Virus record (IMG/VR): IMGVR_UViG_3300026224_000021
Direction: 5' to 3' (one strand)
DNA: 34,928 nt
Source: a virus
Taxonomy: Duplodnaviria; Heunggongvirae; Uroviricota; Caudoviricetes
Positions 31,803 through 32,970 of this stretch are shown one piece after another. Made by a program: the position numbers and the translations under genes. The notes under the pieces are model-generated. The model was not told where the DNA came from, made no database searches, and saw nothing but the letters and a program-made list of their open reading frames with translations. The stretch's first letter is position 1. Each line of letters begins with the position of its first letter.

Positions 31803-31944
31803 ACAAAAATATCCTGCTGCTGTTGCGAATTTGTGCCGGGTTTTAGCCATGCCCGGCGCATGGTTTTGTGGTATTTTTCCACCGCCCGCAGTCTTGAAGG
31901 GGCTGTAAAGGGCGCGTGTTTAACCAACCACAAAGGAGTTGTTA

Positions 31945-32411
31945 TGGAATTAGATGCTTTTGTGTGTCTGCGAATTTTTGAAAAACACTGCGAGCGAGTT
32001 GCTGAATCCTATCGTGATGTGCTGGATAAAGAAACAGCCAACTCAGCATTTGTTGCTACTCGAGCATTAATTCTCCTTAAATTGGATTTGCTACTTGTCG
32101 AGTATCGAAGAAATATTGATTCCAAGTGTGTAGTCCTCTTCGGAAAAAATGTGCTTTATCATTATCTTTTCACCCAAAAGGGTGTTTCATTGTCTGATGC
32201 CAAAAATATGTGTCTCCATGACATACTTATTGTTCTCTGGAATGATATTAATGCATATGTAATACCAGAGCATGTATCCGAGCGTATCCAGATTCTTTAT
32301 AAGCACGAGCTCTCATCTCCAATGCCTGATTTAAGTTATGAAGATGAAAGTCTGTTGCACTTTAAGGATTCTGCTTGGGATTTTTATCCTGCCGATACAC
32401 GACTGAATTAA
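31945..32411 (+). CDS. hypothetical protein on the lysogenic strand (moron-like, AT-rich)
   Basis: 155 aa from the ATG at 31945 with a strong AAAGGAG Shine-Dalgarno 7 nt upstream; visibly AT-rich; same strand as C and int, opposite to the early operon. Confidence 0.55.
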
Positions 32412-32970
32412 GAAACTCATTGTTTCTATCTATTTCAGCCTGGTAGGCCTCTAACTCATGCCGTAATTGTTGTTGTCTTAGTGGTAACCTGTTGCGGCAT
32501 TTCAATTCTGCTACAACGGTTTCCAAAAAATTTATCAGTTCTTCATCAGTGTATGAGCCAGCATAAATGTACGGTTTAGTGTTAGCGCATGTACAGTCTG
32601 CTGTTTCTTTAATGAGCATTGATTCGTCATCCATAATCTGTCGATAAAGTTCAAATGCTTCTTCGGCAGGAAACCTGAGCATGACGCCGCATACTGGTTC
32701 TAAAACCAATCCGAACGTTCCCTTTGCGTTATCCCGACAAAAATGGCCGTATTCATCGTCGGGATGCAGGGTGGCATCTTTCAAATCTTCGCCATTCTGA
32801 AGCTTTGATTTAAATGCCATCAGGTCAGCGAACGTTCTGTGTAATTCGTGGTAGTCAATGCTGATTTCAACCTGTGGTTTGCCCGGAAAAACCAGCAAAA
32901 GCTTCTGGTGTGGTTTTTCGTTTTTCAGGGTTTCCAGTCGTTCCAGTAGCGCTTTATTTTTGTGATTCAT
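32362..32970 (-). CDS. hypothetical protein, first gene downstream of cox-like gene
   Basis: 202-aa ORF with an AGAGG Shine-Dalgarno; its 3' end overlaps the 3' end of the convergent 155-aa gene by 50 bp; AT-rich. Confidence 0.5.
   Translation of the reverse strand: MNHKNKALLERLETLKNEKPHQKLLLVFPGKPQVEISIDYHELHRTFADLMAFKSKLQNGEDLKDATLHPDDEYGHFCRDNAKGTFGLVLEPVCGVMLRFPAEEAFELYRQIMDDESMLIKETADCTCANTKPYIYAGSYTDEELINFLETVVAELKCRNRLPLRQQQLRHELEAYQAEIDRNNEFLNSVVYRQDKNPKQNP

Follow-up and report, generated by a model that had tools for sequence, protein, structure and literature searches.

A convergent, 3′-overlapping gene pair with a widely shared leader in the early operon of a P88-like prophage

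The subject of this analysis is a short AT-rich island (31803-32970) within a stretch of 34,928 nucleotides of viral DNA (Caudoviricetes; IMG/VR record IMGVR_UViG_3300026224_000021), which is referred to as the window. The window is a P88-like (Xuanwuvirus, Peduoviridae) prophage made up mostly of late genes, with the immunity region at its right end. The island holds a plus-strand gene for a 155-aa protein of the ECs1072 family and a minus-strand gene for a 202-aa protein, whose 3′ ends overlap. The island is a horizontally exchanged accessory module that occupies a variable slot in the early (lytic) operon of this P2-family prophage. An original prediction made from the window alone had noticed the gene pair but had missed that it is a conserved two-gene module of three prophage lineages, that the 202-aa protein is a chimera and that the leader of the plus-strand gene is shared by many cargo genes.

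The conservation of the pair became apparent from the genomic contexts fetched for relatives of the 155-aa protein at 33-86% identity, including several IMG/VR contigs. All of these contexts were early regions of P2/186-like or lambdoid prophages, and in every one examined the ECs1072 gene ran in the repressor/integrase direction, against the early operon, and converged on a minus-strand open reading frame (ORF) with which it overlapped at the 3′ end. The arrangement of ECs1072 and partner occurs in three prophage lineages (P88-like, 186-like and the lambdoid Sp4) and in eight or more genera, with identities as low as 33%. The pair follows cox in the P88-like prophages of Escherichia albertii, lies between C and cox in Enterobacter 186-like and SEN5-type prophages, follows a cII-like CP76 gene in the 186-like prophages of Pectobacterium and Serratia, and is located further down the early operon, after cox, in an Erwinia prophage. 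In prophage Sp4 of E. coli O157:H7 Sakai, it is flanked by the cII-position and O-position genes, and its ECs1072 member runs against the early-right operon. A hidden Markov model (HMM) of the domain that the partner ORFs have in common matched the convergent ORF in all ECs1072 loci but one (L035), where the partner motif is visible by eye and the HMM score is 15 bits. The Sp4 partner is an unannotated 169-aa ORF (L079 19168-19677, plus strand) between ECs_1071 and ECs_1073, which corresponds to phrog_8304 over its full length and carries PHIWRGGLSDVELAEWL; its match to the partner HMM is weak (9 bits). Across the sequences compared, the partner domain is thus an obligate companion of ECs1072, co-inherited convergently antisense in the early operons of three phage lineages.

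The overlap itself, which had been predicted at 50 bp for a 155-aa and a 202-aa gene, is exactly of that length when the stop codons are included (Table 1). The same 50 bp are shared by the pairs of L003 (an E. coli genome), of L010 (E. albertii) and of the Enterobacter locus L006, which is 46% identical. In other relatives the overlap measures 53, 77, 80, 89, 98 or 143 bp, and in Sakai Sp4, where the gene involved is ECs_5703, it reaches 316 bp. Comparison of the window with L006 showed that the last 16 codons are 87% identical at the nucleotide level, against 55% overall, and that third codon positions are 80% identical in the overlap, against 41% over the gene. This high identity is the pattern expected from dual coding or from constraint on an RNA duplex. 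A chance origin of the overlap in a single recombination was rejected because distant relatives keep it.

The 202-aa protein is, by alignment, a chimera in which the ECs1072 partner domain follows an unrelated N-terminal domain. The latter shares 74-85% identity with about 30 clusters, mostly of 121-173-aa proteins, a Yersinia member being at 62%; these clusters cover only 55-61% of the 202-aa query, and no family or fold match was found for the domain. In another E. coli genome (L004), a 135-aa protein of the N-terminal family is convergent with a different, 60-aa plus-strand cargo gene. The partner domain, for its part, stands alone as a 91-aa ORF, unannotated in RefSeq, in E. coli strain CFIAFB20180511 (L003, 4066-4341, minus strand); the ATG of this minimal partner overlaps the stop codon of cox, to which it is evidently translationally coupled. 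The domain aligns with the C-termini or cores of the partners in Enterobacter, Pectobacterium, Erwinia and Serratia prophages, and all the partner ORFs share about 70 residues with the motif P.I[YF]AG.L[ST]DEEL..F[LM]E ... NE.I..IV.R, preceded by N-terminal parts that vary from none to about 75 or about 120 aa. The protein identity of the domain is 35-60% across genera, while the flanking DNA diverges. The fused form turns up again in E. coli and E. albertii. The 202-aa protein gave a poor structure model, with a predicted local distance difference test (pLDDT) of 60 and a C-terminal part predicted, at low confidence, as two long helices. The fold search with this model was uninformative, and no PADLOC-DB 2.0 profile matched the protein.

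The 155-aa protein matches NCBIfam NF033230 (ECs1072 family phage-associated protein) with 112.6 bits at a cut-off of 70, over residues 8-154 and profile positions 3-141 of 142. The prediction that neither protein would show a recognisable motif thus held for the 202-aa protein, which has no family match, but not for the 155-aa protein, which belongs to a named family. NF033230 is of a model type that carries no function, and a weak match to phrog_5286 likewise leads to a group without one. The namesake of the family, ECs_5703 of the lambdoid prophage Sp4 of O157:H7 Sakai, scores 105.7 bits. The family is tiny: a set of 5.8 billion proteins yielded about 20 clusters at 90% identity and one of 1.8 billion yielded 17 representatives at 50%, and all of its members come from Enterobacterales prophages. 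The AlphaFold2 model (pLDDT 88.8, predicted template modelling score 0.87) predicts an all-helical, soluble protein, for which no match was found among solved (PDB) or viral (BFVD) structures. Pfam and PADLOC profiles gave no family for it either; the PADLOC-DB 2.0 matches were limited to chance-level ones to Cas7f (E 0.008-0.014, 13 bits). When the profile search was extended to both proteins, 20 ECs1072 members and 10 partner or cargo proteins, Pfam, PHROGs, NCBIfam and PADLOC returned only NF033230 and function-less PHROGs, such as phrog_37260, which matches the 158-aa protein of SEN5. No PDB sequence profile matched either protein of the pair.

Two further observations concern the ECs1072 gene itself. 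Codons ~105-135 (32256-32350) are 67% identical in nucleotides to the alleles of L003 and E. albertii, the rest of the gene being 84-100% identical, and this stretch is, as far as the alignment goes, a mosaic or hypervariable patch in an otherwise near-identical gene. In E. albertii (L010 4001-4084; P0034, 184 aa), the deposited start lies inside the leader; the resulting 29-residue N-terminal extension is probably spurious, because all other homologues start at MEL... behind the Shine-Dalgarno sequence.

The accessory nature of the island is apparent from its distribution. In phage P88, DUF4761 directly follows cox and the 1.1-kb island is absent. Among 5426 complete E. coli genomes, the whole island was found in only one (E300010), at 99.8% identity. 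Another (L003) carries the 155-aa gene with only the minimal 91-aa partner ORF behind it, a third (L004) has the same flanks around other cargo, namely a 60-aa plus-strand and a 135-aa minus-strand gene, and in about a dozen no more than the first 70-110 bases are shared. The contents of the slot thus differ among prophages (L003, L004 and L013): it is empty, or holds ECs1072 with a minimal partner, or unrelated cargo. The two genes are accordingly no core early genes of P2-like phages, in agreement with the earlier proposal of a moron for lysogenic conversion or superinfection exclusion. The parts of that proposal that stood are the patchy presence between conserved genes, the atypical base composition, and the conserved upstream region of its own; no terminator was found after the plus-strand gene, and nothing in PADLOC, Pfam, PHROGs, PDB or BFVD bears out either function. 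The island lies between cox and DUF4761, within the int-gpA interval, which in P2-like phages is reported to be a minor defence hotspot with 8% of P2 defence systems (PMC13586616). By its position in the window, it is outside both of the main P2 defence hotspots (gpA-Q and Z/fun).

Although the islands of the window and E300010 are identical, the adjoining immunity genes are different. In the comparison of window 33000-34200 with L002 4700-5900, the window has a cox ORF of at most 154 aa and a C ORF of at most 121 aa, and E300010 has a 175-aa Cox and a 113-aa helix-turn-helix protein. This indicates that cargo and immunity region recombine independently. A second convergent pair also recurs in the same slot, in which a ~60-aa plus-strand gene behind the leader abuts a 135-159-aa minus-strand gene (Table 1). 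The minus-strand protein of this second pair exchanges domains with the ECs1072 partner family.

The low guanine plus cytosine (GC) content that had drawn attention to the island was verified by a sliding analysis over 1168-bp segments: 31803-32970 has 41.6% GC, against 51.8% for the window, and falls in the bottom 1% of all segments, the six lowest of which start at 31801-32101. The 155-aa gene has 37.8% GC, and 31% at third codon positions. The early region is also fairly AT-rich (44.7% GC across 30250-31800), and with a second patch of about 40% GC in the early operon at 30300-31150, the island marks the far end of a trend and is no isolated anomaly. General AT-richness of the early region as the whole explanation was rejected, the island being the extreme of the window. 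The second patch contains a 108-aa minus-strand ORF (30437-30763) with no counterpart listed in the annotated P88 region, so it is probably another cargo slot. The remaining local details of the original prediction, that is the cox-like gene next to the island (Pfam Phage_Cox), the orientation of the 155-aa gene with C and int, its strong ribosome binding site (AAGGAG, 5 nt ahead of the ATG) and an upstream region of its own with a gccggg...cccggc hairpin, were all recovered, and the upstream region proved to be a conserved leader.

Table 1. Features of the island, its leader and its surroundings (positions in the window unless a locus is named)
Feature	Position	Strand	Remarks
DUF4761 gene	31452-31802	-	228 bits; early operon runs leftwards through it, then through more small genes
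Conserved cargo leader, ~110 nt	31826-31943	+	Core, extended -10-like motif, stem-loop and ribosome binding site
Invariant 40-nt core, TGCCGGGTTTTAGCCATGCCCGGCGCATGGTTTTGTGGTA	31834-31873	+	Near-identical across genera
Inverted repeat GCCGGG...CCCGGC	31835-31840 / 31852-31857	+	Read from the sequence
Putative extended -10-like motif, TGG-TATTTT	31869-31877	+	Assigned by motif
Predicted transcription start	~31884	+	Placed from the -10-like motif
Stem-loop P3	~31880-31918	+	Assigned by covariation
CA-rich tract, then Shine-Dalgarno AAGGAG	31933-31938 (AAGGAG)	+	After P3
155-aa gene, ECs1072 family	31944-32411	+	Same direction as C and int, opposed to the early lytic operon
Dual-coding 3′ overlap of the convergent genes, 50 bp	32362-32411		Stop-inclusive ends, read directly from the sequence
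202-aa gene	32362-32970	-	AGAGG ahead of its ATG
C-terminal partner domain, aa ~122-202	32362-32607	-	Motif P.I[YF]AG..[ST]DEEL..FLE...NEF[LI]NS[VI]VYRQ
N-terminal domain, aa 1 to ~121	32608-32970	-	From a separate, commoner 135-aa early-operon family
cox-like gene	33075-33539	-	Pfam Phage_Cox, 97 bits; directly upstream of the island in the early operon
C gene	33543-33908	+	Orientation shared with int
Candidate early promoter Pe, TTGACA-16-TAGATT	33587-33614	-	Consensus scan, 10/12 matches; between the divergent cox and C
Second recurrent convergent pair	L004 3646-4236; L012 (phage SEN5) 2608-3288; L065 3871-4625		

The leader is the part of the island with the widest distribution. Its core is almost invariant in Enterobacter, Serratia, Pectobacterium, Yersinia and Salmonella elements whose proteins are only 35-47% identical. 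A search pattern of 26 nt was taken from the core, which fixes the TG(G)TA part and leaves the final T and the downstream context free. This pattern was found in 43 IMG/VR P2-like contigs and in eight species-representative genomes, all of Enterobacterales, the latter from Escherichia, Pectobacterium, Pantoea, Brenneria, Erwinia, Xenorhabdus and Kosakonia. Of the isolated phages, SEN4/5 and three Yersinia phages alone carry the leader, which the 186 and P2 records lack. Different early genes flank it (DUF4761, cox, gpB or fil), and a plus-strand ORF always begins at +55 to +130 after the core; these ORFs encode proteins of 39-160 aa from at least 14 unrelated families, ECs1072 being the one behind the leader in about 8 of the 43 unbiased matches. 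In one contig (L042 2871-3650; IMGVR_UViG_3300012135_000057), the leader is present twice in tandem at a distance of 536 bp, each copy followed by a plus-strand ORF of its own (60 and 45 aa), with a repeat that includes ~40 nt upstream of the core. This tandem indicates that units of leader and cargo can be stacked. The presence of a conserved leader ahead of many unrelated small cargo genes in related phages makes the ECs1072 gene look like a swappable accessory module.

The hexamer after the core occurs in nine forms, all of which follow TAnnnT and are preceded by TGn. The seventh base after it is G in 34 of 40 variants, with a pyrimidine before it in 38 of 40, and is at the same time the first base of the core of stem-loop P3. 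An off-pattern leader variant from Erwinia retains TGTTATCTT. In an unfitted MAFFT alignment of 20 variants, P3 was 86.7% paired, against 32-41% with slid partners; seven of its nine pairs had changed on both sides, and none of 500 shuffles reached its covariation score. The fold of the whole leader region is stable on the plus strand (-49.3 kcal/mol, z -3.27; minus strand, z -1.73), and the variable hairpin is more stable on the plus strand in 20 of 47 cases, which is equivocal for strand assignment. Other helices are less well marked: the CCAUGC/GCAUGG hairpin has one compensatory change and the GCCGGG arm has three uncompensated ones. On a plain MAFFT alignment of whole leaders, RNAalifold recovered only the former hairpin, because the variable part misaligns. 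The simplest reading of these elements would be an extended -10 promoter with an operator-like dyad from about -55 to -20 and a protective 5′ stem-loop. None of the Ogr/TGT-N12-ACA, LexA, CRP or sigma-54 motifs fitted the invariant core by inspection.

Rfam has no family for the leader. The best match, to isrK (RF01394) on the minus strand, reached 14 bits (E 0.33-0.6), where the gathering score is 50. Read on that strand, the core has a weak likeness to hairpins one and two of isrK but lacks the third, the terminator, and membership was rejected. A full-length isrK-like Hfq-binding small RNA does occur in the early operon, 2.2 kb from the leader (29542-29616, minus strand; RF01394, 64.3 bits against 50, E 1.6e-12), within the 5′ part of a mechanical ORF (28693-29673).

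The explanation favoured here, and held tentatively, is that ECs1072 is expressed in the lysogen and its partner in the lytic phase, with a possible role of benefit to the lysogen. The leader would act as a self-contained expression unit that transcribes ECs1072 while the C repressor keeps Pe off. Pe, which is part of the context of the island and lies outside it, would drive cox and the 202-aa gene, continue antisense through the 155-aa gene and then enter DUF4761 and beyond. After induction, transcription from Pe would run head-on through ECs1072, yielding the partner protein and silencing ECs1072 by transcriptional interference and 3′ antisense pairing. Because the leader would fire in the lysogen and Pe after induction, the two products would belong to opposite states, ECs1072 to the lysogen and the partner to lytic growth. 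ECs1072 would then most likely be a lysogen-benefit factor acting in exclusion, abortive defence against other phages or host modulation, and the partner may be the phage's own lytic-phase antidote or regulator, plausibly antagonising ECs1072. For ECs1072, protection or exclusion is the most economical guess, in view of its slot and of the precedents among prophage cargo. As for expression, the Sakai homologue gave a signal in a microarray study of uninduced cultures, where it is listed among genes that changed 2.1-fold at a growth transition (PMC2241611).

Several results weigh against this scheme. A standard sigma-70 consensus scan found no promoter upstream of the plus-strand gene, nor is there a -35 element. 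No terminator-like site was detected on the plus strand after 32411, where the gene runs straight into the convergent one. Most single-sequence folds of the leader predict a helix that joins UUUUGUGGU, where the putative -10 lies, to ACCACAAAG, which directly precedes the Shine-Dalgarno sequence, an outcome from which alignment bias is not separated; in the Erwinia variant, the changed arms of the UUUUGUGGU:ACCACAAAG helix still pair in its own fold. If this helix is real, transcription would start further upstream and the leader would be a translational control element. Profile and structure searches revealed no homology or fold of defence, exclusion or toxin proteins for either gene product. 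Finally, in the Brenneria locus L065 the partner domain lies opposite a different small plus-strand cargo gene, so the pairing with ECs1072 is not absolute, and domains and cargo are shuffled. A more specific proposal goes further than the favoured explanation and is unlikely: that the leader, with its operator-like dyad, extended -10 promoter and 5′ stem-loop, is an undescribed P2-family regulatory cassette marking a slot for cargo exchange and conferring lysogen-direction expression on any small gene placed behind it, and, at the same time, that ECs1072 and its partner form a two-state defence or exclusion system with protein-encoded self-immunity, in which head-on, 3′-overlapping transcription and the partner protein would shut off a protective factor once the phage enters the lytic cycle.

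The position of the pair, always beside the genes of the switch (after cox, between C and cox, after cII CP76, and at the OOP position in Sp4), is also what would be expected of a regulator of lysis and lysogeny. The plus-strand promoter would then be the purpose of the cassette: firing from within the early operon towards cox, Pe and C/int, in the manner of lambda OOP/pRE or phage 186 pE, it would dampen the early lytic transcripts by collision and antisense action, maybe reading on into C and int, and ECs1072 and its partner would modulate the switch, for example as a lysogeny stabiliser and a lytic antagonist. The plus strand offers no terminator between the 155-aa gene and C, and in L006 the plus-strand unit ends only ~530 bp before C. 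However, the occurrence of the same leader ahead of so many unrelated small proteins speaks for diversity of cargo and not for one regulatory function, no DNA-binding fold was detected in either protein, and P88, P2 and 186 manage without the cassette; a regulatory role is therefore rated as rather unlikely, if worth keeping in mind. A function in the lytic cycle, such as anti-defence or host takeover, with the plus-strand gene served early or late in infection by a regulated promoter and its lysogenic orientation incidental, would account for a module embedded in the early operon among small genes of the host-takeover type, and a factor active during infection could use the invariant dyad ahead of the -10 motif as its operator. 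Yet three independent phage architectures all keep the orientation against the lytic operon, and transcription arriving head-on from Pe would work against expression in lytic growth, which makes this function improbable.

Strict co-inheritance of two genes on mobile elements, with a convergent 3′ overlap of conserved sequence, recalls an addiction module, in which one protein would be toxic and the other would neutralise it, and the overlap would provide antisense control. The txpA/RatA and bsrG/SR4 pairs of Bacillus prophages are convergent, 3′-overlapping type I toxin-antitoxin pairs, and they resemble the island in having convergent prophage transcripts, an overlap of tens of bases and scope for duplex-dependent control. 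Unlike these pairs, both island partners are conserved proteins. No profile of toxin-antitoxin or defence systems was matched; ECs1072 is predicted to be a soluble helical protein of 155 aa and not a small membrane peptide, so that despite the convergent overlap the small hydrophobic toxin of a type I system is missing, and so is the non-coding antisense RNA, the partner being a protein. Nor does a type II system fit, as the genes are convergent instead of co-directional and have no Pfam or NCBIfam toxin-antitoxin domain. Oppositely regulated transcription units would, moreover, suit state-specific expression rather than constant co-expression, and the chances of an addiction module are slim. 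Still less credible is that one of the ORFs is spurious and the overlap an annotation artefact, an idea that can draw on the low confidence of the 202-aa model and on the lack of annotation of the partner in several RefSeq records (L003, Sakai Sp4). It is largely refuted by the conservation of the partner domain as protein between diverging flanks, by its coupling to cox in L003, by the full-length correspondence of the Sp4 ORF to phrog_8304, and by the score of the ECs1072 protein above the curated NCBIfam cut-off together with its confident fold. Conservation across genera, and for the 155-aa protein the confident model, identify both ORFs as real genes.

The island can be compared with several other known arrangements. 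It shares with morons and lysogenic-conversion cargo, such as that of lambdoid phages and old, tin and fun/Z of P2, an extra unit of low GC and patchy presence between conserved genes, in an orientation that makes expression from the repressed prophage possible. It differs from them in that it is located inside the early lytic operon, away from the late region and from the gpA-Q and Z/fun hotspots, has no predicted terminator, and forms a convergent overlapping pair with an early-operon gene. The cargo and defence hotspots of P2 (PMC9122126; PMC13586616) are likewise variable slots between conserved genes, in which unrelated cargo is swapped by recombination, but the cargo of the present slot is 39-160 aa long without any match to catalogued defence systems, and the slot is marked by the leader and not only by core flanks. 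Lambda OOP RNA and pRE and phage 186 pE are, like the island, units antisense to the early operon just downstream of decision genes, where convergence invites interference, and the namesake in Sp4, flanked by the cII-position and O-position genes, even stands where lambda has OOP. In contrast to them, the island encodes a conserved 155-aa protein and not a short RNA or a repressor message, no CII-type or LexA-type site was recognised, and there is no sequence similarity. A likeness to BstA would be one of concept only, in that a factor of the lysogen may need to be neutralised when its own prophage enters the lytic cycle; the two share no homology, and the self-immunity element of BstA (aba) is a DNA site, not a protein (PMC8585504).

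A literature search for the ECs1072 family, its accessions and a convergent cassette in P2-like early operons returned nothing relevant, and in the literature searched no description was found of the convergent overlapping architecture, of the partner family, which the reference records examined (L003 and Sakai Sp4) also leave without annotation, or of the many-cargo leader. Prophage cargo slots are rich in anti-phage and host-modifying genes, and work on P2-like phages has concentrated on the large gpA-Q and Z/fun systems. The slot described here is a different compartment, situated in the early operon, in which very small orphan genes lie against the lytic transcript behind a shared structured leader. 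The pair of ECs1072 and its partner, conserved from P2-like to lambdoid phages and including a prophage of E. coli O157:H7 Sakai, offers a clean natural case for studying convergent overlapping protein-coding genes in opposite expression states. The leader is the most reusable lead: if it is a portable signal for lysogen-specific expression, it would serve as a search handle for effector mining, for which the 26-nt core has already provided at least 14 unknown cargo families.

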